In this document: piece by piece, positions 6,060 to 40,049 of the stretch | Numbering within the stretch: the first letter of the stretch is position 1 | Layout: every line of letters begins with the position of its first letter | NCBI GenBank assembly: GCA_965202985.1 | Contig: CBDBCF010000002.1 | Span: 416,001-480,000, forward strand | Direction of reading: 5' to 3' | Length of the DNA: 64,000 nt | DNA from: Longimicrobiales bacterium | GTDB lineage: Bacteria; Gemmatimonadota; Gemmatimonadetes; Longimicrobiales; Gaopeijiaceae | Notes under the pieces: generated by a model | Told to the model about the DNA's origin: nothing | Seen by the model: the letters and a program-made list of their open reading frames with translations, nothing else | The model's database searches: none | Position numbers and translations under genes: made by a program

Positions 6060-7144
6060 CCGGCGAGGCGGGCGGAAGCGCTCGGTTCGACTTTGCCGGA
6101 GCGCGGCGCCGGATTCGGCCGTTGGCATGGAAGACGCCGGTCGTGCCGCTCGCGACGGAAGCAACGCCGGGCGAAGCCGTCTTCCTCAAGTTGGAATCCC
6201 TTCAGCGCTCGGGGTCGTTCAAGATGCGCGGGGCCGCGAACCGGCTGACCAAGTTGCTGACCGATTCCGGTCGGCCGTCGGCGGGAGCGGCACGGGTCAA
6301 CGGTGCGGGGCAGGTTACCGGCTCCGGCTCGGAGGCGTCGAGCGGTGCGCCTGGGGGCGTCGTGGCGGTGTCGTCGGGGAACCACGGTCGGGCCGTGGCG
6401 GAAGCCGGACGGCGGCTGGGGGTGCCGGTCACGGTGTGCGTTCCCGAGTGGACCGACCCGTCCAAGCTGCGGGCCATACGGGGCGCAGGCGCGCGGGCTG
6501 TGGTGGCGGGGCCGTCGTACGACCATGCCGAGCGGGAAGCGGCCCGCCTGGAGGCCGAAGAAGGGCTGACGATGGTGCACCCCTTTGACGAGCCGGACGT
6601 GATCGAAGGGCAGGGGACGCTGGGTTTGGAGATTGCGGAGCAGGTTCCCGGCGTGCAAGAGGTGATCGTGCCGCTGTCGGGCGGGGGACTGGTGGCGGGG
6701 GTGGCGTTGGCGTTGCGATCGCATGCGCCGGGCGTTCGCGTCGTCGCGGTTTCCGCCGAGCGGGCGGCGGTCATGCACCGGAGCTTGTTGGCGGGCCGGC
6801 CCGTCGAGGTCCCGGACGAAGAGACGCTTGCGTCGGCCTTGTCCGGCGGCATCGGGCTGGACAACCGGTTCACCTTCGAGATCGTGCGGAACGCGACCTC
6901 CGAACACGTAATCGTTTCGGAGGAGGCGGTGCGTGCCGCGGTCGCCCGCGCCTTTTGCGAACTGCGGCTGGTCGTGGAAGGGGGCGGGGCCGTGGGATTG
7001 GCGGCGCTGTGGTCGGGCGCCTATCGGCCTCGCGGCACGGCCGTGGTCGTCGTTTCGGGCGGCAACATCGACCCGCCCGCGCTGGCCCACGTCCTCGCTA
7101 TCGAAGCCGAGCCACCAGCACCCGGAGGGCGCCTGTCCCGCTGA
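6056..7144 (+). CDS. PLP-dependent threonine/serine dehydratase family, EutB-like
   Basis: LKLESLQRSGSFKMRGA (PLP lysine), SSGNHG, PLSGGGL, GGIGLDNRFTF, SGGNID; start uncertain (CTG overlapping the upstream stop). Confidence 0.8.
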   Translation: MTGEAGGSARFDFAGARRRIRPLAWKTPVVPLATEATPGEAVFLKLESLQRSGSFKMRGAANRLTKLLTDSGRPSAGAARVNGAGQVTGSGSEASSGAPGGVVAVSSGNHGRAVAEAGRRLGVPVTVCVPEWTDPSKLRAIRGAGARAVVAGPSYDHAEREAARLEAEEGLTMVHPFDEPDVIEGQGTLGLEIAEQVPGVQEVIVPLSGGGLVAGVALALRSHAPGVRVVAVSAERAAVMHRSLLAGRPVEVPDEETLASALSGGIGLDNRFTFEIVRNATSEHVIVSEEAVRAAVARAFCELRLVVEGGGAVGLAALWSGAYRPRGTAVVVVSGGNIDPPALAHVLAIEAEPPAPGGRLSR

Positions 7145-9668
7145 CCGTCACTTCGACTTCGATGCCGTGGCCAGAACCGTCGGACTCGAAGTCGAAGAAC
7201 GCAATCCCGGCGGGCGCAAGCTCCTGTTCGTGCACCGCGTTCTGGAACGCCGAGGGCGACGGGCCGGTCACGGGCCAGGGATAGAGGCCGTCGGGCCGTG
7301 CTGCGGAGCTGCGATGGTAGAGATCGTAGGTCGCGGACCGAAAGTCGTACGTTCGGAAGGCGCGGGGTGGTTGGGGCGCACCGGTTCCGCTGAACATCAT
7401 GGCGACGGCGTATTCTTCCAGCAGCACGGCCATGCGTGACCCGACGACCTGCTCGATCCCCCGCGTGCCTGCAGGCGTAAGCGAGTCGTTCAGCTCGGCG
7501 AAGATGCGGGCCTCGGCCTTCTCCGCCGCTCCTCCGTAGGCGTCGCCCAGGAACCGGTGGAAGTGCCAAGAGGTGCCGTAGTACAGGTGGTGGTCGCCGG
7601 GGTTGGTGGTCAACGAGTTCGGTCCGCCGGCGTAGGACCGCAACATCCGGTCCAAGCGCAACAGCACGCCGTAGTTTTCGGGCGAGGCGATGGAGCCGTC
7701 CCGCGGCGGATAGGAGTCGCGAGTGAACGTCGCTCCTACCGCCACGCCGCCCGTGGCCTCGATCGCCTTCCGCGACGAGATCTCGGCAGCGATCTCGGCC
7801 CCTCCTTCCTCGATCCACGAAGGATGGAAGCTGCCGCCCCACCACCGCTTGTACAGGGAACTCACGTGCTTGACCTCGTGCACCATGGTCGGCAGCGCCT
7901 GGTAGCCTCCGGCGGGCGCGCTCAGGGCCTGGAACATGCCGCTGTGGAAGTACACGAGCTCCATTTCGTTGGACCACGGGCAGTTGCTCCGGGTGGTCAT
8001 GTCCCCCGCCCACACGAACGCGGCACTCCCGTCTTCCACGGCGGGCGACACGACCACGTTCACCCGCCCGTTGTCGTCCACGTCCGACACGCCGCCGAAG
8101 TACTCCGCGATCGTCTCGGCCCCGTAGGCGTCGTAGTAGTCCAGCACTTGCTGAGTCGCGGCCGTCTCCACCGGTTCGCTCGCGCGTTGGACCGAGTCCT
8201 GGTAGATCGCCAAGTGGGCGTTGTAGCCCAGCAGCAAGGCGGGTTCCGGTTCCGGGGCGGGGTACTGGCACGCTTCGCTGGCGCGCTGGGTGTCGTACGG
8301 GCGAATCGAGATGCGGCCCGGCGGGGCGGTCTGCTGTGCCAGGGTGCCGCTGGGGCGTGTGCGGTGCCCGCCAAGGTCGGGCAGCAGGGCGTCCTTTCCA
8401 AGGCGCTGGTAGAGTTCCCGGGTTTGGGCGAGCAGCCGTCCGTGAAGGCGGGAAGTTGCGTCGGCGCGCTCGGCGGCTTCGGCCAAGCCCGGCGGAAGTT
8501 GAACCGCGACCCTCTGCGACTCGCCCGCGGCCGTCGGTCGGAGCGACGAGCGCCCCCCGGCCCGGGCGTCCGCACCGGCGTCGGGCGCCTCGTCGCCGTG
8601 CTCGCGAACGGTCACCACGACCGGGACGAAGGTCAGGTTCGTGGAGAAACCGGAGCGGACCACCGCCACCCGGTAGAGGCTTCCGGCGTCGTCGGCCGGC
8701 AAGAAGGGGGGACAGCCGTCGGCGCCGACCGGACCGTCCGATGCCGTGGCGCCCGGTTCCATGCGCAGCGCCGGGCCGCACACGAGCAGGTGGACTTCCC
8801 GGCTCGACCGGGCGCCCGCCGAGTCGCGAGCGCTGACGGTGAAGGCGGTCGCGCCCTCCTCGACGGCTTCGCCCGACACGACCCCGTGCGCCTCCAGGAC
8901 CAGTCCGCGGGGAAGGGAACCACCGGACACGGACCACTCCACCGGTCCCTGGGCGTGCCTCGCCTCCAGCGTTTCGCGGTACGGCACGTCGACCCGGGCG
9001 CGGGGAAGCCGGGAGGTGGCGACCACAAGCTCGGCCGTGGCGGTGGCGACGAACTCTGCTTGGAGGTCACCGGAGGCCGCGTGGAGCCGGTTGACGCCCG
9101 GTGCTTCTCCCAGCGTCCAGCGCGTGAAGGCCTCGCCTTCGGAGTTGGTGCGGGCCTGCTCAGCCGAAACCGTGCCGCCGCCGGCCGCGACGCGGAACGT
9201 CACCGGGGCGTTTGGTACCGGCGCGCCGCTTGCGTCTGCGACCCGAACCCTGGGGTCTTCGGGAAGGACCGACAGGACCGCGGCGGACAGAGAGTCGCCG
9301 GCCACCTTTCGCATGTCGGCGGGGCGAAGCACGACGGCCAGGGAGGCCGTGCCCGACACCGCTTGGTGCGTCGCCCGGATCACGGCCGTCCCCGGGCCGG
9401 CGACGGTCGCCAGCCCCGTTGGCGACACGGTGGCAACCTCCGGCCTGGCCGACGACCACGCGACCTCCGCGCCTAGGATCGTCGCGCCCTGGGGGTCCTG
9501 CACATGAGCGGAGAACTGCACCGTGGTCCCGACGGTCTCGGCGGTGGCGCTGGCGGGCGTCACGACCACTCGCGACGGGACGGGCGGGGCCGCGTCGCCG
9601 CAGGCGGTCACGGCCAGCGCAACGGTTGCGGCGGCCCAGCCTAGGGAGCGGGGACCGGTTCGGGTCAT
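7098..9668 (-). CDS. Lipoprotein with tandem Ig-like domains and a C-terminal zinc metallopeptidase domain
   Basis: Lipobox AVTAC; Big_2/Big_1/putative-Ig repeats (WSSARPEVATV, GGSLPRGLVL); HEVKH followed by WIEEGGAE (gluzincin-type). Confidence 0.75.
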   Translation of the reverse strand: MTRTGPRSLGWAAATVALAVTACGDAAPPVPSRVVVTPASATAETVGTTVQFSAHVQDPQGATILGAEVAWSSARPEVATVSPTGLATVAGPGTAVIRATHQAVSGTASLAVVLRPADMRKVAGDSLSAAVLSVLPEDPRVRVADASGAPVPNAPVTFRVAAGGGTVSAEQARTNSEGEAFTRWTLGEAPGVNRLHAASGDLQAEFVATATAELVVATSRLPRARVDVPYRETLEARHAQGPVEWSVSGGSLPRGLVLEAHGVVSGEAVEEGATAFTVSARDSAGARSSREVHLLVCGPALRMEPGATASDGPVGADGCPPFLPADDAGSLYRVAVVRSGFSTNLTFVPVVVTVREHGDEAPDAGADARAGGRSSLRPTAAGESQRVAVQLPPGLAEAAERADATSRLHGRLLAQTRELYQRLGKDALLPDLGGHRTRPSGTLAQQTAPPGRISIRPYDTQRASEACQYPAPEPEPALLLGYNAHLAIYQDSVQRASEPVETAATQQVLDYYDAYGAETIAEYFGGVSDVDDNGRVNVVVSPAVEDGSAAFVWAGDMTTRSNCPWSNEMELVYFHSGMFQALSAPAGGYQALPTMVHEVKHVSSLYKRWWGGSFHPSWIEEGGAEIAAEISSRKAIEATGGVAVGATFTRDSYPPRDGSIASPENYGVLLRLDRMLRSYAGGPNSLTTNPGDHHLYYGTSWHFHRFLGDAYGGAAEKAEARIFAELNDSLTPAGTRGIEQVVGSRMAVLLEEYAVAMMFSGTGAPQPPRAFRTYDFRSATYDLYHRSSAARPDGLYPWPVTGPSPSAFQNAVHEQELAPAGIAFFDFESDGSGHGIEVEVTVSGTGALRVLVARLR

Positions 9669-9677
9669 GGAACGGCT

Positions 9678-11525
9678 TTAGTAGGCGAGAGCATAGGCCT
9701 CTCTCCGGGGATCGGCAGCGGCCACCAGCGTCCCGTTCTCGTGATCCACCACGATCATCTGGGCGCCGCCGAAGGTCGCGGTCCAGCCGTGCACCACGCG
9801 AACTTCGTGGCCTAGCGCCGCCAAGGCGTTCAGCACGTCTTGGGAAATGCGGTCCTCCACGTCCACCACCGTGCCGGGGTAGCTGCGGAACCTAGGTGCC
9901 TCCAACGCGGCCTGGGGCGTCATGCCGAAGAGCGCGCCGTTGTTCATGATCTGCATGAGCGACTGGACTTGGCTGTCGCCGCCGGGCGTGCCCAAGGTGA
10001 ACGCCAGGGCGCCGTCGGGCGTGGTGGCCAGGAGCGGCGTCAGGGTATGGTAGGGCCGCTTGCCGGGGGCGACCTGGTTGGGATGCCCGGCCTCCAAAGT
10101 GTGGAGCGAGCCCCGGTTGTGGAGCAGCACCCCGGTCTCCGGCTCCAAGAGGCCGGACCCGAAGCCGTGGAACAGGCTCTGAATCCACGACACCGCGTTG
10201 CCCCACTGGTCGACGGCGGTCAGGTAGACGGTGTCGCCCGCGTCGCGTGGCCCGAGGGCCGGATCGCCGGCGTCGCTGGCGTTGCCTGCGTGGGGCGACG
10301 AGTCCGTGTTGCCGGTGTCGAGGGCGTCGGGCGCGTCGGCCCCGCCCGGAGCGGGAATCCCCGGGGCCACGGCCTCCGCTGCCGCCCTTGGATCGAACCG
10401 TTCGGCTCGCGCCGCCAAGTAATCCGGGTCCAGCAGCTCTTCGATCGGGATGTCCGCGAAGTCGGGGTCGGCGGCCCACTGGTCTCGGTCCGCGAACGCC
10501 AGCTTCTTGAGCTCGATCAGCGTGTGCAGGTACGCCGCCGTGTTGTGTCCCATCTCCTGCAACGGATGCCGGGCGGCCATCTGCGCCAGGGCGAGCTGGG
10601 CGATCCCCTGCGTGTTGGGCGGCAGCACGTGAAGACGCGCGCCCAGGTACTCGGCCGACAGCGGCTCGACCCACGTGGACGTGTGGGCCGCGAAGTCGTC
10701 CAGCACCAGGGCGCCGCCGACGGAGTCCAGGAAGGTCGTCAGGCGCTCCGCGACCGCGCCCCGATAGAACGCCTCCTTGCCCCCGCGAGCGATGGAGCGC
10801 AGCGTGGCCGCCAGCGCCGGGTTGCGGAGCAGGGAACCCGCGGGAGGTGCGCCGCCTTCCGGCAGATAGAGGGCCCGTCCCGGTGCGTTGAGGGCCGACC
10901 CCTGCGCCTCGAAGTCGGACGCAAGCCGCGTGGACACGGGAAACCCGTCTTCCGCGTAGTGGACGGCGGGGGCCAGGAGCTGCTCGAAGGGCAGGGACCC
11001 GAAGCGGGCGTGGGCGTCTTCCCAAGCGGCCGGCGCGCCGGGCACGGAAACGGACAGCGGACCGGTCTCGGGAACGGCTTCGTGCCCCAGTTCCCGGAAG
11101 AACTCCGGCGACGCCTTGGTGCCGGCCCGCCCGCTCCCGTTCAGCGCGTGGACCGCTCCCGTCCGGGCTTCGTAGAAGAGGCCGAAGGCGTCTCCCCCCA
11201 CGCCGTTCATGTGGGGGCGGACCACCGCCAGCACACCGGCCATCGCCACCACCGCGTCCGTCGCGTTGCCGCCGCGTCGCAGCACGTCCAGGCCCGCCGC
11301 CGCCGCCAACGGATGGCCCGCTGAAACGGCGCCCCGGACGCCGCGCACCTCCGGCCGGTTGGTCGAGGGCAGCAGGGCGGCCGTCCCGGCCACGCCGGCT
11401 TGGTCGCGGGCCGTCGTCCCGTCGTCGCCGCCGGAGCCCGATCCCGAACAAGCGGCAAGGGCAAGGGCCGCGGCGAACTGAAATGCCGCAAGCAGCGGTC
11501 CGATCTCCGCCTTGGTTCGTCTCAT
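9678..11525 (-). CDS. ggt: Gamma-glutamyltransferase (lipoprotein)
   Basis: GGNATDA, GVGGDAF, catalytic Thr in GDTVYLTAVD, PGKRPYHTL, GTPGG, AADPRR; lipobox LAAC; ATG at 11525 (the longer ORF reads through a propeller-gene remnant). Confidence 0.92.
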   Translation of the reverse strand: MRRTKAEIGPLLAAFQFAAALALAACSGSGSGGDDGTTARDQAGVAGTAALLPSTNRPEVRGVRGAVSAGHPLAAAAGLDVLRRGGNATDAVVAMAGVLAVVRPHMNGVGGDAFGLFYEARTGAVHALNGSGRAGTKASPEFFRELGHEAVPETGPLSVSVPGAPAAWEDAHARFGSLPFEQLLAPAVHYAEDGFPVSTRLASDFEAQGSALNAPGRALYLPEGGAPPAGSLLRNPALAATLRSIARGGKEAFYRGAVAERLTTFLDSVGGALVLDDFAAHTSTWVEPLSAEYLGARLHVLPPNTQGIAQLALAQMAARHPLQEMGHNTAAYLHTLIELKKLAFADRDQWAADPDFADIPIEELLDPDYLAARAERFDPRAAAEAVAPGIPAPGGADAPDALDTGNTDSSPHAGNASDAGDPALGPRDAGDTVYLTAVDQWGNAVSWIQSLFHGFGSGLLEPETGVLLHNRGSLHTLEAGHPNQVAPGKRPYHTLTPLLATTPDGALAFTLGTPGGDSQVQSLMQIMNNGALFGMTPQAALEAPRFRSYPGTVVDVEDRISQDVLNALAALGHEVRVVHGWTATFGGAQMIVVDHENGTLVAAADPRREAYALAY

Positions 11526-11695
11526 CGACTTCGCCTTTCCACGCAGGTTACGCGGTAGCCCTCCACCCACTCCTCGCCCAGGGCGTTCGTCACCGGCTTG
11601 GCCGTCCCGCAGGTCGGTCATGTCTAATCTCGCGGAAAAGTTGGCCTCGGCCACGAGGGTGTCGCGGGGCCGAATCGCCTTCCATAGGCGGGAAA
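11451..11695. repeat. Copy A of a ~250-bp diverged direct repeat (ggt 5' end + beta-propeller gene 3' end)
   Basis: Aligns with 15101-15350; shared blocks include TTCGTCTCATCGACTTCGC, TAGCCCTCCACCCACTCCTCGCCCAGGG and AAGTTGGCCTCGGCCACGA. Confidence 0.9.
11522..11695 (-). pseudogene. 3'-terminal remnant of the 6-bladed beta-propeller gene
   Basis: Encodes WKAIRPRDTLVAEANFSARLDMTDLRD, matching WKAIGPGGTIVAEANFPRDFDMTDLR of the 15166-16354 gene; has a small deletion; its TGA overlaps the ggt ATG. Confidence 0.85.
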
Positions 11696-11762
11696 ACCGT
11701 TGCGGGTTCAGATAGCCGCCGCTGGCCACGGCCTTGATGTCCAGCTTTGAACGGGGCCGAGG

Positions 11763-13079
11763 CTATGTGGTTCGAACCCGTGGGGTCCCGACATTGGCGT
11801 TCCAAGCGTCAGCCACGGCCTCCATCAGTGTGGCCAGTCTTGGCCAGTCTGTAGTGTGCACTGCGGCCCGGAAGCCCTCGTTCTCCCGCGTCACCATGCC
11901 GCAACAGAAGCGCCACGGTCCCGCGTCGGGGTCTGGAATCGACCACTCTCTCCGAGGCGGGGGCGGGTAAGCGTGCCCAACCAGCATGTCATACCTGTGG
12001 AAGTCGCTCACCACCACTTCCTGCCGAGCAATTACGTCCCCCAACACGACGTACTTCTCCGTACTTGGGCGTCTCACGGCCAAGTCGACGTAGGCCCCGC
12101 CGTTGAAGGCTTCAAGGAATTCTCGAATCGGACGTTCCTCCCCATGCCTGATCGAGGTCGTGTCGAGGTCGTCGCTTGGCCTCGACCACACCCAAGGGTC
12201 CCACCATCCCATTTCACCCAAGTACACGGACACCGGAGACTCATATATGTTCCCTAAGAAGCCACGCGCTCCGGCGGCCCGTAGCACGTCGGCCACTTCG
12301 TCGGCGGACTTACAGGCTTCGAGCGTGCTCCACCCCTCTGAGTTAACGAGGCGGAGGCCCCCCTTCCCAGATCTTACCAGTTGAGACACGGTCCGGGCCA
12401 CGGGGGTCCCGACATGGGTGTTCCAAGCATTGGCCACGCCCTCCAACAGCTCGCCCAGTTCGCCCAGTTTTCGCCAGCCGGTGTCGCGCATCGCGGCACG
12501 GAAGCCATCGTTCTCCGGTGCCACTGTTCCGCAATGGAAATCCCATAGGTCACCAGACTCGTCCTTCGGATACTGAACTGGAATCGACCACCCGCTAATG
12601 CTACGTGTCGAGGGCCAACCCGGGTAGGCGTGCCCCACCAGCGTGTTGCCCACCAGCACCTCCTGCCTGGCGGTTACCCTCCCAAGGTGTAGCCACTTTA
12701 CCTCCTTGCTTCGGGAGCGTTTCAGAGCCAGGTCGACGTAAGCCCCGCCGTTGAAGGCTTCGATGAACTCCCGGACCGGACGCGGGGTCTCGCACCAGAT
12801 ATCGACCTTGTCGTCGTGGTCGGATCGGACAAACAACCTCGACCAATCCCAATGGACGTCGGCGGAACCATCCTGCCACCGTCCAATCCCATCCATTAGG
12901 TACACTTCCACAGGGTTTTCTCGGATGCCACGTCCTTCTCGGATGCCACGTGCTCCGACGGCCCGAAGCACATCGGCCACTTGTTCCGCGGATTCGCAGG
13001 CCTCGAGTGTGGACCAGCGACCAAGGACCGTCGTAGACAGGCTGGCAGGCACAGCTCTTGTCTCCTTACTTGCTTCCAT
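11763..13079 (-). CDS. Hypothetical protein made of two tandem ~200-aa homologous units
   Basis: GGAGG SD upstream; motifs WSTLEAC.SA..VADVLRA.GARG, REF.EAFNGGAYVDLA, LVGHAYP and EN.GFRAA each occur twice; lower GC. Confidence 0.75.
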   Translation of the reverse strand: MEASKETRAVPASLSTTVLGRWSTLEACESAEQVADVLRAVGARGIREGRGIRENPVEVYLMDGIGRWQDGSADVHWDWSRLFVRSDHDDKVDIWCETPRPVREFIEAFNGGAYVDLALKRSRSKEVKWLHLGRVTARQEVLVGNTLVGHAYPGWPSTRSISGWSIPVQYPKDESGDLWDFHCGTVAPENDGFRAAMRDTGWRKLGELGELLEGVANAWNTHVGTPVARTVSQLVRSGKGGLRLVNSEGWSTLEACKSADEVADVLRAAGARGFLGNIYESPVSVYLGEMGWWDPWVWSRPSDDLDTTSIRHGEERPIREFLEAFNGGAYVDLAVRRPSTEKYVVLGDVIARQEVVVSDFHRYDMLVGHAYPPPPRREWSIPDPDAGPWRFCCGMVTRENEGFRAAVHTTDWPRLATLMEAVADAWNANVGTPRVRTT

Positions 13080-13194
13080 CGCCGCTATTCCTCCCGAGCC
13101 CTACCCTAATGGCCCCTGGGCCATCGCCCCCTTGGCTTGGCCCATTCACCGTCTACACAAGTTGCGACCTAATCCCTATGGACGCAACCGAAGG

Positions 13195-13248
13195 TGTCGA
13201 ACGACAACCAAAGTGAGACGGGAGCGACAAGCACGATGAGACCGTCGG
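13195..13248 (+). mobile_element. Isolated transposon-end-like sequence E1 (IS21-family-like)
   Basis: TGT terminus followed by two 23-bp-period repeats CGACAAnCAnnnTGAGAC; 42/54 identical, ungapped, to 15025-15078. Confidence 0.6.
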
Positions 13249-13267
13249 AGGCAGCCGTGGGCCGAGG

Positions 13268-13296
13268 TTGACTGGCATGACTTCGGGGGCTACCAT
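13268..13296 (+). promoter_or_regulatory. Sigma70 promoter (leaderless geometry) of the TPR pseudogene copy
   Basis: TTGACT-N17-TACCAT, 6 nt before ATG 13303; hexamers are conserved with the copy at 17694-17722. Confidence 0.7.
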
Positions 13297-13302
13297 GCGT
13301 TC

Positions 13303-14026
13303 ATGTCCAGCTACCGCAAGCCGTCCGGCCGCCCGGCCAAGCCGGTGAGTCCCGTGGACCAGGAAAAAGACGCATTCGTCGCCACCACGCTTCAGGCCAC
13401 GCGGTGGGCCCGGCGGCACCGGCCGATCCTGACGCTCGGGATCGTCTTGGCGACGGTGATCGTGGCGGGAATCGTGTACTACGTGCGCTACCAGAACACG
13501 CTGAACAGCGGACGGCGCTCCAGTTGGAGGAAATCCAGCAGCGGCTCGACACGGGGGATCAGACAGGGGCGCAGGCCGACTTGGGGCTGTTCTTGGAGTG
13601 CTTCGACGGTACGCCGTCCGCCGACGAGGCTCGGATTGCCGTTGCCCAGATCAGCAACGGGACAGGGGAGCTCGGAGCGACGGCCGCAATCTTGGAGCCG
13701 CTGGCACGGGACATGGGCAGCCCGCTGGGCCCCAGGCCGCGGGCCTTTCTGGCGGTGATCTTCTCGGAGGACGCGGGCAACCTGGAGACGGCGGAGGGGC
13801 TTACCTGCGCCTGGCCGACCATCCCGTTTGGGCTTTCGGGTGAGAGACGCCCTGGCCGCGGCGGCCCGCAGTCGCTGGGAATCGGGCGACGCCGCGGGCG
13901 CCATGGAGCTGTACGACCGGATCTTGAGCCGAATGGACGAGATGCGATCTGAACCGAGGCTTGGCGGAGATGCGGCGGGCCGAAGCGAATGTGATTGCGT
14001 TGTGGACCGCGTCGGAGCTTCCCTAG
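13303..14026 (+). pseudogene. Frameshifted full-length paralog of the TPR (YfgM-like) gene at 17729-18448
   Basis: Colinear from ATG to stop with 17729-18448; single-base indels near 13511, 13800, 13821 and 13945 split it across three ORFs. Confidence 0.9.
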
Positions 14027-14036
14027 CCGTAGCGCC

Positions 14037-14957
14037 ATGAAAGGGAAGTTGGGAGGGCAAGCCCCTGACCCCGTCGGAACTGCTCGGCGAATCGTTGCTC
14101 TGGACCAAGCCCGAGAAGCATTGCTTGCATCACAGACTTACTGGCGCGAGAAGGCTGAGGCTGAGAGGGAGAGCGCATGGCGTCGCGACTTCGGGGACAA
14201 GCGACTCTGGGAGTACCAAGCCCAGAGCTATTGTTTTGCCGCTGCCGCGGAGCGCCTGAAGAGCAACATGGAGATGTTCGCCCGCCGCCTCCATCACGAG
14301 ATCCGTGAATTCCTTAATCCATATCTCCGGCGCTTTGGCTCCGACTTCCGGCCCAACGCCGATGATGTCGCAGCAGCCCTCGAAGTCGCGGGTGGCGACC
14401 GGGCCGTGGCCGCCCGACACCTCCGGATTGCTGCCCTTGGAAGTCGAGGGTACCGTGCTAGTCTTGAAGTTAGTGCCGATGTTGTGCTCCACACGAGTCG
14501 CCACGAAGCCTCGGACCCTGCGGAAACACCCTCACGACTCGCCTGGCTATGGAGGCAAGCCCGAAAGGCCTTATTCGAGCTTATAACCGCCTTTCAGGGG
14601 TTCCTGTACATCTTTACCCCAAGATTCGTCAAGAACCCGCTGTACGACTGGGCCCTGCGCCCTCTGCCCCCAAGATTCCGCCGGCTTCGAGGACTCGTCC
14701 AGCTATGGACGCCAAACAACGGGCGTCATTGGCGGTGGTATTTTGTAATATTCCGCCGTCGCAACCCCGACCCAATCGAAACGGCAACTCGGTGGATCAC
14801 CGTCCTGGGTCAAGCCCGAGAAGCCTTGCTCAATGTCGTCACAGGCGCCGATACCAACGAGGCTAGGACGTTAAAGGAAGATCTAGCAGAAGAGCTAGCA
14901 GAAACCATGATGTTGCTCGCTTATCACATCAGTGCCGAATTGGACACGGCCTACTAG
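14037..14957 (+). CDS. Hypothetical protein (306 aa) with a thrice-repeated helical motif
   Basis: ATG 10 nt after the TPR pseudogene stop; lower GC; repeats of DP.(E/G)T..R...L.QAR.AL. Confidence 0.6.
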   Translation: MKGKLGGQAPDPVGTARRIVALDQAREALLASQTYWREKAEAERESAWRRDFGDKRLWEYQAQSYCFAAAAERLKSNMEMFARRLHHEIREFLNPYLRRFGSDFRPNADDVAAALEVAGGDRAVAARHLRIAALGSRGYRASLEVSADVVLHTSRHEASDPAETPSRLAWLWRQARKALFELITAFQGFLYIFTPRFVKNPLYDWALRPLPPRFRRLRGLVQLWTPNNGRHWRWYFVIFRRRNPDPIETATRWITVLGQAREALLNVVTGADTNEARTLKEDLAEELAETMMLLAYHISAELDTAY

Positions 14958-15024
14958 TCGACTACCACGCGACCTCCACGCTTGCGACTGTCACGCCCTG
15001 GGCGTCCTGCACTATGGTCCCGAC

Positions 15025-15078
15025 TGTAGAGCGACAATCAGAATGAGACCCTGGCGACAATCAAGATGAGACTGTCGG
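15025..15078 (+). mobile_element. Isolated transposon-end-like sequence E2 (IS21-family-like)
   Basis: TGTAGA-GCGACAATCAGAATGAGAC-CCTG-GCGACAATCAAGATGAGAC-TGTCGG; same architecture and orientation as E1. Confidence 0.6.
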
Positions 15079-15100
15079 GATCGGAACTCAATCCCAAACG

Positions 15101-15350
15101 AGCGGCAAGGGCCGGATGCACGGAAGCACCGCAAGCAAGCAGCCCGGTCCTCGCCTCGGTTCGTCTCATCGACTTCGCTCTTCCACGTCGCAGGTTACCC
15201 GATAGCCCTCCACCCACTCCTCGCCCAGGGTGTTCGTGACAGTCCCAACGGCCCGGTCGTCCCCGCAGGTCGGTCATATCGAAGTCTCGCGGAAAGTTGG
15301 CCTCGGCCACGATGGTGCCCCCGGGGCCGATCGCCTTCCAACGGCGGGAG
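15101..15350. repeat. Copy B of the ~250-bp diverged direct repeat, including a ggt 5' remnant (15101-15169)
   Basis: Minus strand reads MRRTEARTGLLA...ALAA versus ggt MRRTKAEIGPLLAA...ALAA; homology stops shortly before E2. Confidence 0.88.
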
Positions 15351-16354
15351 GGCCGCCGTGGGTCCGGGTAGTCGCCCAGCCACAGCCAACCGTTCTCGGC
15401 CGCCACCAAGCCCTGATAGGGCGGGAGGGTGGCGGGGCGCCCGGCGATCTCGACGGAAGCCTCGACGATGTCGGGTCGCCCGGTCTCTTCGCTCCGGACT
15501 GCCATGATCTCGTCCACGTCGTCGTCCGTCAGAACCGAAGGCTCTGCTCCACGACGAAAGGTCCTCCTGCGCCCTGCGCTGTCCAGGGCCGCCAAGTCCG
15601 GCTTGCCGCCCGTCCCGACGACGACAAACGAGTCCGTGGTCGCCAAGACGCTCGCCAAAGGCAGCAAGGGCCTCACGAACTTGGGGCCGCGGCCAACGTG
15701 AATGTGCGTCCCCGAGGGAATCACGCCGATCTTGCGAACGAACGCACCTTCGTCGTCAAAGAAGAGCAGGGGAAGGTCCGGGCGGAACGCGCCGGGTCGA
15801 AAGCCGTCGAGCGACGTGACCATCCCGCCCACTCCGACGATCCCGCCCGGGCCGGGCAGTGCGCCTCCAACGTATGGTGCGAAGTCCCCTCCGCCGCGCA
15901 GCCGAACCAAGCGACCGACCCACGGCTCGTCGGCCCCGAGCACCGTAACTCGCTGAAGGCCGGAATCGTACACGAACAGCGAGTCGCCCTTGATCCGTGT
16001 CATGTCGGTGGGCCTGACGTACTCGCCCGGTCCCTCGCCTCCGCGAGCCTCGTAGACGGTGTGGCCGTTTCCGTCGAAGTACCTCAGGGCCGGCGGATCC
16101 CTTTCGACGACTGCCACGTAGGCGCCCACCTGGGACACGCCGGCGATCCGAAAGAACGGTTCTCCGCCGGAAGCGATGCCCTCCGGTCCTACGCTGTCCC
16201 AGGCGAACAGCTTCTCGACGTCGCACGACGAATCCTGTGCTGGCCCGTGCTCGTCCTCATGTTCCACGCCGCCACAGGTTGCCAGCAAGCCGCCGATTCC
16301 GCAGATGCACGCGGCCAGCGACGCCCTTCCGAGTACTGGCAATGCAAGGGCCAT
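15166..16354 (-). pseudogene. 6-bladed beta-propeller exported protein with a +1 frameshift near the 3' end (or a sequencing error)
   Basis: RGGEGPGEY, DSLFVYDSGLQRVTV, GWLWLGDY motifs; removing one C from CCCC 15261-15264 restores ...DLRDDRAVGTVTNTLGEEWVEGYRV...* ending in an ATGA overlap with the ggt remnant; copy A has CCC here. Confidence 0.72.
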
Positions 16355-16373
16355 CGGAAAGCCGTGGCCCACC

Positions 16374-17498
16374 CTATCGCGACGACCTGTCTGGACGTGG
16401 TCGCTGTCTACCCTTCTCTCGAATCGCAAGGCTGCTCAGCGTCCATGCGCCGGTCGGCGGAGCATTGGACAACACGACAAGATGGTCGCGAGCGAACAGT
16501 ATCTTGCCCGGCAATGGCACATCTTGCGAAACTTTGGTCAGACTTGACAACGCATAAATGTCGGCTCGATATGACGCCTTTTGGTAGCCAAATTCGCTGG
16601 GATCCAGGTCCCGATGTTCGACGATCAGGAAATTGTTCCCCACAACCCAAAGCGACCTGACCTTCGTAAAGCTCCGAAGAAACAACTGAAATGCTCGTTC
16701 TGCACCGATAAACTCCCCGGCTCTCGGTCTCCTGGGGTGGCGAAAGGACGAAGGTGCTGTCCCAAATTCGGTAACGGAAAGGGTCGACGCGTTGTAGCGA
16801 TGCATCGGGTAGAGCATTGAAGACGCTACATAGAAGTGGTTCGGCGCAACGGCAAGGTGGTGATGGTATCCGGCTGATCCCCAGTACGCTGGAAGCTCGA
16901 GCACGTGTTGTACGTGATGGTGGAAGGCACGCACGATGCTGCCGTCGAGCGAGTACTCGAAGAATGCAGCGCCTGGGGCATGGGTATCGGTCTTCTCAAC
17001 GATTAAAACCGAATCGTGTGCATGAAGTCGTGGCGACCATATCTCTTGATCAAGTGGAAACGAGAAGTCGACGCTGTGATCCGCCATGTTCAGAACGACG
17101 ATCCGAGGTGGAAAATCGGAAACTGCAATGCGGTTGCGGTCCAGAAAGATGGCGTCGTAAGGGGATGCGTAAAGGGGTGCGTCTCTTGTTGCTGCGGGGG
17201 ATGACATGGGAATCGGAGAGCCGGACGAATCAAACAGCAAGACTGCCGGTTGGTCGCGGTCCGTGATCAAGAGGAGGCCGTCGTCCCGTATGTCCAAGTT
17301 GTCCACGGATACCAGTGACGAACTCTCGGTCTGCCGAAGAACGACTTGGCCAACGTCGACGAACTCGAATTCGGCTCGAGCAGGGAGCCCATCTAGTTCG
17401 GTGCAACCCAGAACGCTGGCGATGCCAAGGACATGTGCCACGACGACGCGGCGCCGAGTCGCGACGTGCTTGACAGCTGACTGGCCGAGTCGCCTCAT
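16374..17498 (-). CDS. 6-bladed beta-propeller putative lipoprotein
   Basis: Lipobox-like VLGC; LDIRDDGLLLITDRDQPAVLLFDSSG, YSLDGSIVRAF blade repeats; lower GC. Confidence 0.65.
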   Translation of the reverse strand: MRRLGQSAVKHVATRRRVVVAHVLGIASVLGCTELDGLPARAEFEFVDVGQVVLRQTESSSLVSVDNLDIRDDGLLLITDRDQPAVLLFDSSGSPIPMSSPAATRDAPLYASPYDAIFLDRNRIAVSDFPPRIVVLNMADHSVDFSFPLDQEIWSPRLHAHDSVLIVEKTDTHAPGAAFFEYSLDGSIVRAFHHHVQHVLELPAYWGSAGYHHHLAVAPNHFYVASSMLYPMHRYNASTLSVTEFGTAPSSFRHPRRPRAGEFIGAERAFQLFLRSFTKVRSLWVVGNNFLIVEHRDLDPSEFGYQKASYRADIYALSSLTKVSQDVPLPGKILFARDHLVVLSNAPPTGAWTLSSLAIREKGRQRPRPDRSSR

Positions 17499-17693
17499 CG
17501 GCGTTTCTGCACGACGGCTAGGATTGCGTGAGATGGACCACTCTGGAGTGATCGTCCGCGGTGGACAAGTTCAACATAGGAGGCTGTCAACGGAACGCAA
17601 GATAATTCCGGTACGGGATATGCCGAGTTGGGGAGACCGGCCCCCGAGAAGGAGAGCTCCCTCGGTACTGGGTGCCGCCCCAAGGGCCCCCCG

Positions 17694-17722
17694 TTGACCG
17701 GTGCCCTCTCGGGGGTTACCAT
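17694..17722 (+). promoter_or_regulatory. Sigma70 promoter (leaderless geometry) of the TPR gene
   Basis: TTGACC-N17-TACCAT, 6 nt before ATG 17729; no SD. Confidence 0.72.
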
Positions 17723-17728
17723 TCGTTC

Positions 17729-18448
17729 ATGTCCAGCTACCGCAAGCCGTCCGGTCGCCCGGCCAAGCCGGCGAGTCCCGTGGACCAGGAAGACGCGTTC
17801 GTCGCCACCACGCTCCAAGCCACGCAGTGGGCCCAGCGGAACCGGCCGATCCTGACGCTGGGGATCGTCTTGGCGGCGGTGATCGCGGCGGGAATCGTCT
17901 ACTACGTGCGCTACCAGAACACGCTGAACAGCGGGGCGGCGCTCCAGTTGGAGGAGATCCAGCAGCGGCTCGACACGGGGGACCAGACGGGGGCACAGGC
18001 CGACTTGGAGCTGTTCTTGGAGCGCTTCGACGGCACGCCGTCCGCCGACGAGGCCCGGATTGCCCTTGCCCAGATCAGCGCCGAGGCGGGGGAGCGCGAA
18101 GCGGCAGCCGAGATACTGGAGCCGCTGGCACGGGACATGGGCAGCCCGCTGGGCCCCCAGGCCGCGGGCCTTCTGGCGGCGATCTCGGAGGACACGGGCA
18201 ACCTGGAGACTGCGGAGGCGCTGTACCTGCGCCTGGCCGACCAGTCCCGCTTAGGCTTTCAGGTCAGAGACGCCCTGGCCGCGGCGGCCCGCATTCGCTG
18301 GGAATCGGGCGACGCCGCGGGCGCTATGGAGCTGTACGACCGGCTCCTGGCCCGAATGGACGAGACCGATCCGGACCGAGGCTTGGTGGAGATGCGTCGG
18401 GCCGAGGCGGAGGTGGTCGCGCTGCGGACGGTGCCGGGGGCTCCCTAA
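17729..18448 (+). CDS. Membrane-anchored tetratricopeptide repeat protein (YfgM-like)
   Basis: Single N-terminal TM (ILTLGIVLAAVIAAGIVYY) followed by TPR-like helices (FLERFDGTPSADEARIALA, GDAAGAMELYDRLL). Confidence 0.8.
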   Translation: MSSYRKPSGRPAKPASPVDQEDAFVATTLQATQWAQRNRPILTLGIVLAAVIAAGIVYYVRYQNTLNSGAALQLEEIQQRLDTGDQTGAQADLELFLERFDGTPSADEARIALAQISAEAGEREAAAEILEPLARDMGSPLGPQAAGLLAAISEDTGNLETAEALYLRLADQSRLGFQVRDALAAAARIRWESGDAAGAMELYDRLLARMDETDPDRGLVEMRRAEAEVVALRTVPGAP

Positions 18449-18467
18449 GGCGGACCCCACATCCACC

Positions 18468-19007
18468 GTGGATGCCGCAGACCGGCGGATCGCCGACTCC
18501 GCAACGACGATGTGCCGATGCACCGTCGAACTCACCGCCTGGATCGACCGCATCAAGTATCCGGTTGATGTGCGCGCGGTCGAGGAGACCGTGGAAGACC
18601 AGGCGTCGCAGGCCCTCGCCAGCGTGCTTGAAGGCTTCGAGATCGAGATCGATCGATGCGACTGCACGTTGATCACCGACCGGGATCGTCTAAGCCGCCT
18701 CTTTCGTGAACACCACGCGGCTCGGGTCGAGGCCGCGAAGACTTGGCACCGCCGTGCTCAAGGTCGCGCCGCTTCGAAGGCGGGTCGCGATTGGCCCGGC
18801 GTGTCCGCCGACACACGTCGAGCGCTCCGGGCCGAGGCCGAGAACGAACCCGAGAATCCCAAGACCGAAGGAGCGGACGCGCCTGGGGTCGACGCCGGTG
18901 ACCGACCTGGAGCCCGGGAAGGAGACCCGCGACCCGGAGCCCGGACGCTGGCGAAGATCCGGTGTGTCGTCGGCCGAACTCCGTGCCGAGGCCGAAAACG
19001 CCGTTGA
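18468..19007 (+). CDS. Hypothetical protein, possibly degenerate, abutting dif
   Basis: Protein-like N-terminal half; the LRAEAEN motif recurs in a different frame at ~18980, suggesting a frameshift. Confidence 0.35.
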   Translation: MDAADRRIADSATTMCRCTVELTAWIDRIKYPVDVRAVEETVEDQASQALASVLEGFEIEIDRCDCTLITDRDRLSRLFREHHAARVEAAKTWHRRAQGRAASKAGRDWPGVSADTRRALRAEAENEPENPKTEGADAPGVDAGDRPGAREGDPRPGARTLAKIRCVVGRTPCRGRKRR

Positions 19008-19058
19008 TCTGGCGCTCGGCGGCGGCCAAGGTAATCCCTGGGCGGAGCAACGCCTTGA

Positions 19059-19086
19059 AGTTCGTATAATATGTATTATGTAAAGT
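19059..19086 (+). other. dif site (XerC/XerD chromosome dimer resolution site)
   Basis: AGTTCGTATAA-TATGTA-TTATGTAAAGT: 11-6-11 layout matching E. coli dif GGTGCGCATAA-TGTATA-TTATGTTAAAT; isolated AT-rich spot in very GC-rich DNA. Confidence 0.9.
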
Positions 19087-19193
19087 TGAAGGAACAGGAA
19101 TCGGGCCAGTCAGTCCACGGTTGAGTCTGGGCCCGCTGCCTCCCCTTCCTGAACGGGAAACGGCTTCCGTGGAGCGTGGCCCGTACCGCTCGG

Positions 19194-20291
19194 TCAGCGG
19201 AACAGGTCTTCGATGCGCGCGGCGAGGTCCGTGCTCATGGGCGCACCGCTGAGGTTGGCCGTCACGGCCACGATCGCGCCCGTGTCCCGGTTCACGGTGA
19301 GCACGGTTCGCCCGCCGACGGAGCCTCCGGTGTGGGAGACGATCCGCTCGCCTCGGCTGTTCACGCTCGACCGCCAGCCGATCCCGTAGCCCGTCTCGTC
19401 TCCGTTGCGCAAGCGCTGGGGCTCGAAGAGCACCTCCAGCGTGGCGGCCGACAGGAAGTCGGCGTCCAGATGGGCGGCGGCGAAGCGCAGCAGGTCTTCC
19501 GGCGTGGACAGGAACCCTCCACCCGCCCACTTGTAGCTGTTGTCCACATGGGGCGCGTTGAGGACCTGGCCTCCTTCCCCTTCCACGTAGAACCGAGTTC
19601 GGTGCGGGATGATGCTGTCCGTATGGCCGGCCACGGTATGCCGCATTTCGAGCGGGTCGAAGACGACGCGGTCCATGTACGTCAAGAAGGGCTCGCCGCT
19701 GGCCCCTTCCACGACGGCGCTGATCAGGTTCCAGCCGTAGCTGGAGTAGACGTACGCCGTGCCGGGTTCGTGTAGAAGCGAGTCGTCCCGAAAGATCGCG
19801 AGTCCCGAGAGCACGGTGGGATACCGCGCGGACGAGAAGTTCTCCATGCCCCGGTAGTGACGAACGCCGGCCAGGTGACCCGCCAGCTGCCGGGTCGTGA
19901 CCGGCCAACGCTTCTCCGGAAACGAGGGCACGTAGCGCTGCACGGGCGCGTCCAGGTCCAGCCGGCCGGCGTCCAGCAGCACGCCGAGCGCCGCGGCGGT
20001 CAGCGGCTTGGAGACGCTCCCGACGCGGAACTTGGTCAGTTGCGTCACCGACACGCCGTGGGTCAAGTCCGCGGAGCCGAAGCCTTCCGACCACAACACG
20101 CGGTCCCCCCTGCCCACGGCCGCCGACAGGCCGGGTATGGAATGCGCCTTCATGACCGAATCGAGCAGAACGCGGGCGGCGGCTTCGGGCCCGACCTGCG
20201 GCTCCCCCTGCGGGGTCGGTCGGCAGGCAAGCGGCAACAGCGAAGAGGTGGTCGCGACGCCTGCGAAGGCCAATCTGACGATGATGTTCAT
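19194..20291 (-). CDS. Serine hydrolase, beta-lactamase/LACTB-like family
   Basis: SxxK (GSVSK), LAGHLAGVRHY, YSSYG, HTGG; lipobox-like LPLAC. Confidence 0.88.
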   Translation of the reverse strand: MNIIVRLAFAGVATTSSLLPLACRPTPQGEPQVGPEAAARVLLDSVMKAHSIPGLSAAVGRGDRVLWSEGFGSADLTHGVSVTQLTKFRVGSVSKPLTAAALGVLLDAGRLDLDAPVQRYVPSFPEKRWPVTTRQLAGHLAGVRHYRGMENFSSARYPTVLSGLAIFRDDSLLHEPGTAYVYSSYGWNLISAVVEGASGEPFLTYMDRVVFDPLEMRHTVAGHTDSIIPHRTRFYVEGEGGQVLNAPHVDNSYKWAGGGFLSTPEDLLRFAAAHLDADFLSAATLEVLFEPQRLRNGDETGYGIGWRSSVNSRGERIVSHTGGSVGGRTVLTVNRDTGAIVAVTANLSGAPMSTDLAARIEDLFR

Positions 20292-38096: not shown

Positions 38097-40049
38097 TCAG
38101 CGCGGACGCAGATGCGCTTCGGCTTCCCAGATGGCGTGCCCGTCCGCTGCGATCTGGCCCGTCCTGATCCGGACGATGTCGTAGCTCGGCAACTGCACAG
38201 GGATCACGCATCCGCCGCCTTCCTTGTAGTGGTGCCGCCACGTGATCAGGCGGAAGGCATGTCGTTCGTGGCCGGCGCCGGCCGAACCGGCGGGAAGCGC
38301 TTGCGGGTCCGCCGGGTGGAAATCGACGTAGAAGCGCGTCGCGGCTTGCCCGTCGCCGCGGCGGCAGCGGCGCTTTACGTAAACGAGCTGGTTGTCGCGC
38401 AAATGCACGTCCCAGGCCGAACGGATCAGCAGTGCGCCCTTATTGTCCTCGTTCTCGCCGGGATCACGGTGACGCAGCAGTGTGCGCAGATGCGGGCCAA
38501 CCGCGTAGGCGCTCTTCTGGCGCTCAACGACGGGTCCAGTGTCCAATAGGAGAGAGTGCCCGAGGGTTTCGTAGGGCAGGAAGCCTGGCCTGGACGTCGG
38601 TCTGTACATCTGGAGTCCCATTTCCCACACGACCGTGACCGCGCCGACGGCCAGCACCGCCAACAGGGCGCGGTAGGCTGGCCGCGAACGCTCGTGCCTG
38701 TCGGGCGGCCGAGCCGCAACGGCGCGCGCCGCGTAGTGGGCGAGCACCACCAGCGCCGGGATCGTGAATCTGATGCTCCATTCGCTGAGGTCCGGTTGTC
38801 CGTACCAGTACCAGGGCGCGACCAGCAATGCGCCGACGGCGGCAACGAACGGCGGGTCCCGGACGACGCGGGGGTCGAGCCGCAGCAGCAGCGCGGCGAG
38901 CACCGCGAACTCGGCCGCGTAGAGCAGCAGGACATCGGCCGCCAGCCGAATCCGGTCGTCGTACAGCTCCCAGAGCCAGCCGCGCTCGAAGTCGACGGCG
39001 CCGCTGGTCATGTACAAAGCGATCAGCGCGGCCAGCGGCACGGCGACGAAGAAGTTCTGCCGGCTCGCTGCGCGACGAGCGTTCGGGTTCTTCGCCAGCA
39101 TCGCCGCGGCCAGCGGCAGCAGGCCCGTGGCGAGCAGCGGCGACCAGAAGAGGCAGCAGGCGAGGACCACGCCGCTCGCCTCCAAGAAGCGGCGGCGCTC
39201 GCGAAGCCGGAGCATGAGCAGCGTGGCCAAGCCCGCCGGAAGGAAGTGCTGCGGCGTAAGCGTGAGAGTCCGGTTGTACGTCTGGTACTCGAGCAGCATC
39301 GGGCTGGCCGACGTTTGCACGAAATCGAGCAGTCGGTTTCGGTTCTGTCCTTGTGGCCAGACCCAGTCCGGGTCGATCTTGTCGCGGAGCATGTGCGCGA
39401 AGTCGGGAACGCCCTGGCGCAGCATCATCTCCACTATGTCCATGCCGCTGAAGAACACCAGGACGGCGACGGCCAGCAGCGCCGCCCGCAGCGTGGGCAG
39501 GCCGCGTGCGAAGAGCAGCACGACCAGGGCCGTGCCGCACCACGTCCACAAGGGCACCGCCCAGTTGAGTGCCGCGGGTCCCAGCCACCGCCCCAGCAGA
39601 ACCGGGACCATGTGCCAGCCCAGGTAGTAGCGCAGCAACGGCGGCGGGTCGTGCAGGTAGTCGACCGGGTACGTGGGCCATCCGCCCCGGGTCAGGTCCA
39701 GAAGGGTGGCCCGGTGCGTGGACCAGTCGTCGGCAACGGTGAAGACCCCGCCTGCCGGCGTCGTGAGAACCCACGCGCCGGCCGCAAGCACCAGCACGAC
39801 CGTGGCGCGGGAAGGCCGGCGCGGGCGCCAAGAGCCCGACAGCGCCTTCCACGCGCCGGCCGCAAGCAGCGCCGTGGCGGGCACGCCCGTCCACCAGTGG
39901 AACCACCCCAGCAGCCACACCGCCACCGGCGCCAGCAGGTAGGCCATCGCCAGCCGGTGCACCAAAGGCAGCTCGCGGGACTCCGTCACCACACCGCCCG
40001 AAGCGCCGCTGAACAACTGCCGACCGTCGCCGGCGTCGCGACGAGTCAT
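38097..40049 (-). CDS. Polytopic membrane protein, putative GT-C-fold glycosyltransferase with a C-terminal soluble domain (copy 1)
   Basis: About 12 hydrophobic segments; first-loop DDW..H....DL...WP, LRYY.GWH..P, FSGMD, PQH; ATG 40049 overlaps the stop of copy 2. Confidence 0.7.
   Translation of the reverse strand: MTRRDAGDGRQLFSGASGGVVTESRELPLVHRLAMAYLLAPVAVWLLGWFHWWTGVPATALLAAGAWKALSGSWRPRRPSRATVVLVLAAGAWVLTTPAGGVFTVADDWSTHRATLLDLTRGGWPTYPVDYLHDPPPLLRYYLGWHMVPVLLGRWLGPAALNWAVPLWTWCGTALVVLLFARGLPTLRAALLAVAVLVFFSGMDIVEMMLRQGVPDFAHMLRDKIDPDWVWPQGQNRNRLLDFVQTSASPMLLEYQTYNRTLTLTPQHFLPAGLATLLMLRLRERRRFLEASGVVLACCLFWSPLLATGLLPLAAAMLAKNPNARRAASRQNFFVAVPLAALIALYMTSGAVDFERGWLWELYDDRIRLAADVLLLYAAEFAVLAALLLRLDPRVVRDPPFVAAVGALLVAPWYWYGQPDLSEWSIRFTIPALVVLAHYAARAVAARPPDRHERSRPAYRALLAVLAVGAVTVVWEMGLQMYRPTSRPGFLPYETLGHSLLLDTGPVVERQKSAYAVGPHLRTLLRHRDPGENEDNKGALLIRSAWDVHLRDNQLVYVKRRCRRGDGQAATRFYVDFHPADPQALPAGSAGAGHERHAFRLITWRHHYKEGGGCVIPVQLPSYDIVRIRTGQIAADGHAIWEAEAHLRPR

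Follow-up and report, generated by a model that had tools for sequence, protein, structure and literature searches.

The two 54-bp motifs E1 (13195–13248) and E2 (15025–15078) are ordinary scars, left by a resident IS21-family element that inserted separately at two places in a decaying tandem duplication near dif, a reading to which we assign a probability of roughly 0.86. Both lie in the window, the whole stretch of 64,000 nucleotides of Longimicrobiales DNA that was analyzed, and are identical at 42 of 54 positions without gaps, on the same strand and 1830 bp apart, as a first-pass annotation had reported; the best score of any other 54-mer in the window against E1 is 30/54. The 19-bp unit recognized within them is matched exactly at 13201, 13224, 15031 and 15054, with a period of 23 bp. 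When the 42 shared positions were scored across the 3.86-Mb genome, seven sites reached 38–42 and the next one 28. The placement near dif also holds: a dif-like 28-mer on the plus strand (19059–19086) is the only site in the genome matched by any of the three dif patterns and is conserved in 3/3 congeners, and the cumulative GC skew of contig C2 peaks at about 11076 in window coordinates. The dif-like site and the skew turn together put the locus at the chromosome terminus. An assembly artefact was ruled out: the duplicate copies are 11–22% diverged, sequencing runs X9 and X10 contain 0.99 and 0.92 of the words (both are possibly the source sample, and hence not independent), and a contig from X1 spans E1, showing no differences over 13166–13493 and so confirming E1 outside the likely source sample.

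Opposite ends of a resident IS21 element

The IS sequence at E1 extends over 13195–13271 on the plus strand, with repeat L1 at 13201 and L2 at 13224, and is cut at IS position 77. It is 83% identical to positions 1–77 of a 2,866-bp element in the congener G001, and the end ahead of istA at C1:516971 of the source genome (G000) matches it at 89% over 65 bp. In the case of E2 (15025–15083, plus strand; R1 at 15031, R2 at 15054), the element is cut at position 59, and the match is to positions 2866–2808 of the same G001 copy (88%) and to the right end of a bounded copy at C1:1381745–1384154 of the source genome (96.5% over 57 bp). As the two motifs match opposite ends of the complete G001 element, E1 is an IRL and E2 an IRR, the latter from another copy of this IS21 that inserted in reverse orientation. 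E1 and E2 are therefore two different ends, reaching 77 and 59 bp, and not one type. Since the IRL and the IRR share a strand, they belong to two oppositely oriented insertions and do not make a direct-repeat pair, and we infer that, by the known IS21 pathway, such an arrangement could neither transpose as a unit nor be excised as a pair of direct repeats. A BLASTN search of the window with a complete copy of this IS21 returned E1 and E2 as the only matches.

Across the genome, copies of the end fall into two classes, split by their downstream sequence. About 200 bp downstream of the E1-class end at C1:516971, an open istA frame (C1:517195–518079) matches NF033546 at 205.7 bits (cut-off 160) and has the catalytic residues D132, D198 and E245, counted on the translation; this gene, which is not present in the window, has its best plasmid relatives among IS21 istA genes at 56% identity, Sinorhizobium medicae plasmids being the nearest database relative. 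At C1:1381745–1384154 the two classes face each other around a decayed istA and istB, and in G001 they are inverted around the 2,866-bp element, which has istA and istB frames; a second G001 copy of 2,416 bp is internally deleted. Both bounded G001 copies start with TGT and end with ACA, termini that E1 and E2 match in agreement with the TG...CA of the family, and the at least two direct repeats per end of IS21 elements are present in E1 and in E2. The istB gene lies between istA and the right end, as PF01695 pieces at C1:518772 and C1:1383264–1383763 in the source genome and as an open frame in G001's element; in the source genome, which is 92% complete, PF01695 has 10 matches, all of them short of the full IstB profile. 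The expectation that matches would flank istA and istB was thus borne out, together with the IS21-type reading of the ends: the E1-type end precedes istA, and both types bound an istA-istB element in G001. A transcription-factor operator was rejected as the motif forms the terminus of istA/istB elements.

According to PMC10122671, IS21 ends carry two direct repeats each (L1/L2 and R1/R2), both needed by IstA, and on sequence grounds the 23-bp-period tandem repeats of E1 and E2 are the predicted IstA-binding sites of these two types. The same source gives 5-bp direct repeats as the product of IS21 insertion; a target-site duplication is absent at 2/2 bounded G001 copies, at the bounded copy of the source genome and at the reconstructed E2 insertion. 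This counts against the scar reading; such an absence is expected where adjacent deletion or recombination has followed (PMC11708052). Several left ends carry one repeat after TGT (C1:2169610 and C1:2095077 in the source genome, C1:3724890 in G001, and likewise the end in the related strain X5), and look as if one 23-bp unit had been lost by slippage. A 25-letter end pattern is matched 9 times in the source genome and 11 times in G001; the other 29 genomes have no match (2 of 31 genomes with matches), and a reversed control found nothing. All four matches on contig C2 lie on the plus strand, and a two-repeat end pattern had no matches in metagenome contigs. The element is a putatively new IS21-family member, occurring in two species of one genus.

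To place E1 and E2 among their relatives, 13 ends in the source genome (8 left, 5 right) were catalogued by hand. Their first IS block stops at 59, 70, 77, 79, 97, 121, 145, 146, 152, 226, 359, 388 and 959, and on the inner side of the 11 ends besides E1 and E2 there is more IS DNA in eight, unique DNA in one, a CRISPR-like repeat region in one and a repetitive gene family in one; in 0/11 does a copy of a neighboring single-copy host gene lie there. The solo ends are a decay series of this IS21. Three other IS queries gave 14, 14 and 9 matches in the genome, many of them fragmentary. The outer 1 kb falls in the lowest GC quartile for 12/13 ends, so that the ends associate with foreign-looking DNA, which counts against the scar reading; low-GC, foreign-looking DNA is also where IS insertions are tolerated. 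Elsewhere in the source genome, at C1:519089, the istB of this element is directly joined to part of an istA belonging to a second, distinct IS21, an istB fragment of that second IS21 abuts an IRR of the first (C2:822532), and a 226-bp left-end remnant stands just before a long CRISPR-like array with a repeat of ~36 bp and a period of ~73 bp (C2:293665–304276).

A decaying tandem duplication around the scars

E1 and E2 both lie inside a tandem duplication of a Big_2-GGT-propeller-TPR segment. In 3/3 congeners the order is single-copy (Big_2, GGT, TPR, dif, serine hydrolase, putB-like) and is free of the propeller-like genes, ORF1 and ORF2. Copy 1 contains an intact minus-strand gene for a Big_1/Big_2 Ig-domain surface protein (7098–9668; Pfam, syntenic in 3/3 congeners) and an intact minus-strand gamma-glutamyltranspeptidase (GGT) gene (9678–11525; PF01019, E 6e-141; 75–77% identical to congeners). 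The 5′ end of this intact GGT gene is followed by a 3′ remnant of propeller-like gene 1 (11432–11733, minus strand), which was recognized by tblastn of a 463-aa ORF, residues 352–429; the same pair, GGT 5′ end plus gene 1 3′ end, occurs again at 15082–15387 (minus strand; 245/317 identical to 11432–11733). Two minus-strand lipoprotein-like ORFs (15038–16429 and 16374–17498), here labelled beta-propeller-like, have no family match and are absent from this locus in the three congeners. The 463-aa ORF is apparently frameshifted near its 3′ end (15038–15260) and reads through the GGT remnant into E2; a sequencing error of the assembly does not account for this frameshift, since an X1 contig (15090–15622) has the same letters.

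The TPR gene is represented twice. The intact plus-strand TPR_21 gene of copy 2 (17729–18448; PF09976, E 5e-14), which we take to be YfgM-like, has one match each, at 69–72%, in 3/3 congeners, and a frameshifted pseudogene on the plus strand (13267–14025) is identical to 17693–18447 at 678 of 765 positions and retains a promoter-like site. Between the intact gene and dif lies a third ORF without a family match (18468–19007); across the three congeners TPR and dif stand ~56 bp, 1.2 kb and 1.5 kb apart, which makes this slot a variable one. Other features of the window include three tandem copies of ~1.93–1.97 kb at 38109–43900, 60–99% identical in parts, and two ARAGORN calls, tRNA-Arg(CCT) at 1352–1426 and tRNA-Arg(CCG) at 8481–8572, the second of which lies inside the Big_2 ORF and is probably a false call.

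The duplicated host segments begin close to the motifs, as had been noted, and the intervening letters are IS sequence; the spacing of about 20 bp given for both sides is right for E1 (19 bp, host from 13267) and wrong for E2 (4 bp, host from 15082). The left side of E2 was misjudged as well. Here a minus-strand remnant of the Big_2 gene (14954–15024; native 9445–9533; sole other match in the genome, E 6e-7) is identical at 51/63 positions over 14954–15016 and, if one 18-bp deletion between 6-bp direct repeats is allowed, runs to 15024 and abuts the TGT of E2. As the Big_2 copy reaches the TGT, E2 is a junction between host and host, not between an orphan gene and host, and its two host flanks lie about 1.84–1.9 kb apart in copy 1.

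At its inner junction E1 shares 5 bp between IS and host, with one mismatch to the IS, and E2 shares 2 bp. Within the E1 overlap lies the -35 hexamer of a sigma-70-like -35/-10 site with a 17-bp spacer (13268–13296, plus strand), copied from the TPR gene, where the identical hexamer pair stands at 17694–17722. This is the only promoter-like match in 12900–15300, with 0.3 expected from shuffles. The E1 deletion stops within the overlap, and since the overlap contains the -35 hexamer the promoter-like site survived, facing the TPR pseudogene and ORF2; a deletion that removed the TPR promoter is thereby ruled out. Its survival may reflect chance or selection. A more ambitious reading holds that IS21 activity built the block, with opposite copies moving or fixing a rearranged host segment together with ORF2, and that the deletion stopped at the -35 because the predicted promoter now drives ORF2; we regard it as very unlikely. 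If true, the terminus slot would be an IS-made nursery of fast-evolving, lineage-specific genes in a sponge-associated bacterium. An outward hybrid promoter from E1 toward ORF1 was not detected, as the minus strand has no promoter-like site, and Rfam gave 0 matches in 9000–20000. The native -35/-10 pair lies 6 bp before the TPR start codon (17694–17728), which suggests, from sequence, that the TPR transcript may be leaderless.

Substitutions in the two TPR copies bear on the age and origin of the middle block. The pseudogene branch has 31 nonsynonymous and 12 synonymous changes over 529/188 sites (ratio ~0.9), plus frameshifting indels, with C>T or G>A in 23/43 changes, and the intact branch has 4 and 10 (ratio ~0.14); changes were polarized with three congeners, outgroups of only ~70% identity, leaving 11/68 differences ambiguous. 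The copy beside E1 appears to have evolved neutrally, its function lost at or soon after duplication. This tells against the copy being a long-lived gene of another species, and so against the idea that the middle block is xenologous, brought in with ORFs and IS scars from a related species by a single crossover in the GGT/propeller repeat. The distribution of divergence would suit such an import, as the degenerate pieces are contiguous in the middle and 11–22% diverged and the outer functional parts share ~97% identity with strain X8, where the block is absent; mostly synonymous change would be expected of it, however, against a pseudogene ratio of ~0.9 versus ~0.14 for the intact copy (11/68 differences unpolarized), and we consider it highly improbable.

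Related strains and the order of events

Runs containing the sequence are marine and sponge metagenomes, and 4/10 listed runs were aligned to the window. In X8, a 9,657-bp contig of ~97% identity links 11612 to 17690 via 2,950 other letters, and thus shows one copy, without ORF1 or ORF2; up to 11612 this single copy matches copy 1, but it may not represent the ancestral condition. In X5 the duplication is present, as are both ORFs. At the site of E2, the X5 sequence runs from 15024 through 24 letters to 11370; these letters are the reverse complement of the IRL and lead on into its terminal CA, and 5 bases are common to host and IS at the left-hand joint. The junction comes from one contig of depth 11, placed at 80% likeness with 30 letters on the short side, and was assigned to record 18 by length arithmetic (617+4+354+24+30 = 1,029). 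Because X5 keeps the opposite end, a whole IS21 once sat at the E2 site, and the simplest reading is that the common ancestor carried one complete, leftward-reading IS21 between Big_2 9533 and GGT 11372.

For two IS21 insertions in a decaying duplication, a plausible history has three steps. A tandem duplication near dif, starting within the Big_2 gene and ending at the TPR stop codon, would have come first (the homology is observed, and the order is reconstructed), followed by reciprocal gene loss in which copy 1 kept Big_2 and GGT, and copy 2 the propeller-like genes and TPR. Two IS21 copies would then have inserted in opposite orientations into the dispensable middle, to judge from their ends. 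The insertion behind E2, placed between Big_2 9533 and GGT 11372, is reconstructed as lacking both 1.84 kb of host DNA and any target duplication, which points to an IS-adjacent deletion or to recombination between two copies. Finally, microhomology-mediated deletions (2–5 bp, judged from the observed junctions) would have removed the IS bodies, leaving 77 bp of IRL at E1 and 59 bp of IRR at E2; X5 would have lost the other side at E2 and kept ~26–31 bp of IRL. One insertion leaving opposite ends in two strains is an instructive example, and same-strand solo ends that can mimic cassette sites call for caution.

The same ends might instead be the remains of an inverted composite transposon, in which two opposite IS21 copies, with E1 and the X5 IRL as outer ends, moved TPR, ORF2 and the Big_2 remnant as cargo and then decayed. 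Two insertions in opposite orientation do lie on either side of ORF2, the 5-base flanks to the left of E1 and to the right of the X5 IRL (the latter taken from the window copy) agree at 4/5, like a worn 5-bp target duplication, and like-kind pairs of IS21 ends integrate in vitro according to PMC10122671. However, two duplications would be required, given the TPR-Big_2 adjacency and the target's own 360-bp GGT/propeller repeat; a 4/5 match arises by chance at an estimated ~3%; and all cargo but ORF2 is local host DNA. We judge this composite history quite unlikely.

ORF1, ORF2 and the capture proposal

ORF1 (11763–13079, minus strand) encodes a lineage-restricted protein of 429–438 aa with two internal repeats of ~215 aa and has no Pfam, NCBIfam or PHROG match; it stands in place of most of the propeller-like genes in copy 1. 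ORF2 (14037–14957, plus strand; 306 aa), also lineage-restricted, lies at the junction of the two duplicate copies and has no Pfam or NCBIfam match and one marginal PHROG match (E 0.0088). Both have internal repeats. The first-pass annotation had called the ORFs left of the motifs low-GC orphans: the low GC is confirmed (~0.62 and ~0.59 versus a genome 1-kb median of 0.69), and strict orphan status is not, since three homologs of ORF1 (71–76% identity) and two of ORF2 (59–65%) were found among 8,000 scored candidates each, 59–76% identical overall. Contigs of 8,889 and 43,474 bp occur in both lists. The frames are open in 4 ORF1 and 3 ORF2 sequences despite many in-frame indels, and in X5 the two ORFs differ from the window by ~10%, versus ~4% for GGT and the first propeller-like gene (~2.5x faster). 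A profile search of 1.84 billion proteins with ORF1 gave seven matches, namely one homolog and six proteins of 98–125 aa (P0008–P0013) that weakly match the first half of each ORF1 repeat (E 1.7e-7 to 9.6e-4), two of which have a weak match to phrog_19191. No locus for ORF1 turned up in the genome or metagenome contigs. ORF1 was not found in 30/30 relatives and ORF2 not in 29/30; the lone ORF2 match (G007, E 7.6e-5) falls within the TPR gene and was treated as compositional. The Atlas gave no usable match for either ORF, and the AlphaFold model of ORF1 has a pLDDT of 30.

Both ORFs stop short of the IS ends: the first possible start of ORF1 lies 115 bp from E1, and the ORF2 stop 67 bp from E2, in this second case with host DNA between. 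We think it most likely that ORF1 and ORF2 are foreign genes, part of a variable stretch of the terminus that the IS entered later. The annotation had proposed instead that the solo ends are recombination sites used in trans, here by IstA/IstB, to capture orphan cassettes and build an array beside dif. E1 and E2 each retain two full repeats, the IstA minimum in vitro as given in PMC10122671, the genome has an open istA frame, the ends lie in low-GC DNA, and the ORF1 and ORF2 homologs sit on contigs of the same two sizes, all of which would suit capture. Set against this are host DNA on both sides of E2, retained lengths that vary continuously with more IS DNA after 8/11 other ends, and the finding that 0/10 PF01695 matches span the full IstB profile (genome 92% complete). 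Moreover, neither an integron integrase over cut-off in the genome nor an attC-like site in 11501–15200 nor a second dif in the window was found. X5 lost the IRR at E2 yet keeps both ORFs and the opposite end, an allele that largely refutes capture. No allele missing exactly the 1,830-bp E1–E2 interval appears among the joints listed (15/27, from four runs, in contigs that drop rare variants), and the matches reduce to IS21 copies, the outcome named in advance as telling against capture, which we now hold to be exceedingly improbable. The remaining interest lies in ORF1 and ORF2 themselves, whose frames are kept open and which have no family match.

Comparison with known systems

MITEs and mobile insertion cassettes consist of IS ends without a transposase; their two ends are inverted, their length is fixed and they are flanked by a target duplication. 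The present arrangement resembles them in its IS ends without a transposase; this class was rejected because E1 and E2 are single ends that share a strand instead of being inverted, and the block length runs from 59 to 959 over 13 ends and is not fixed. Integron cassette arrays and pdif modules have short direct repeats beside ORFs, and short direct repeats beside lineage-restricted ORFs near dif are what the window presents. An integron cassette array was rejected on five partial TIGR02249 matches, none over cut-off, in the 92% complete genome, and the simple attC-like pattern RYYYAAC...GTTRRRY is absent from 11501–15200; a pdif/Xer module was rejected because the best site besides dif scores only 13/22 against the genome's own dif. 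Tn7-like or CAST ends were likewise rejected, as ends of this type enclose istA and istB, not tnsB, tnsC or tniQ.

The closest likeness is to the IS21 family (IS21, IS5376), which (PMC10122671) shares the TG...CA termini, two repeats per end, istA (DDE) followed by istB (AAA+) and a length of ~2.9 kb. Unlike such elements, the window holds single ends only, of 77 and 59 bp, with no target duplication, and some copies have a one-repeat left end. For the deletions, the parallel is with IS-adjacent events: PMC9330008 reports that ISPve1, of the IS21 family, is adjoined by deletions of 0.5–4.5 kb, and PMC11708052 describes adjacent deletions, loss of the target duplication and IS copies at the center of large deletions and duplications. 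E2 agrees with such cases in its non-adjacent host flanks, the absence of a target duplication and the 1.84 kb of missing DNA, a size inside the ISPve1 range. Our literature search found no paper pairing IS fragments with microhomology in symbionts. E2 departs from the IS-associated duplications of PMC11708052 in lying inside one duplicate copy, off the duplication junction, and from the deletions and duplications described in both sources in that the IS body itself would later have been deleted, differently in two strains.
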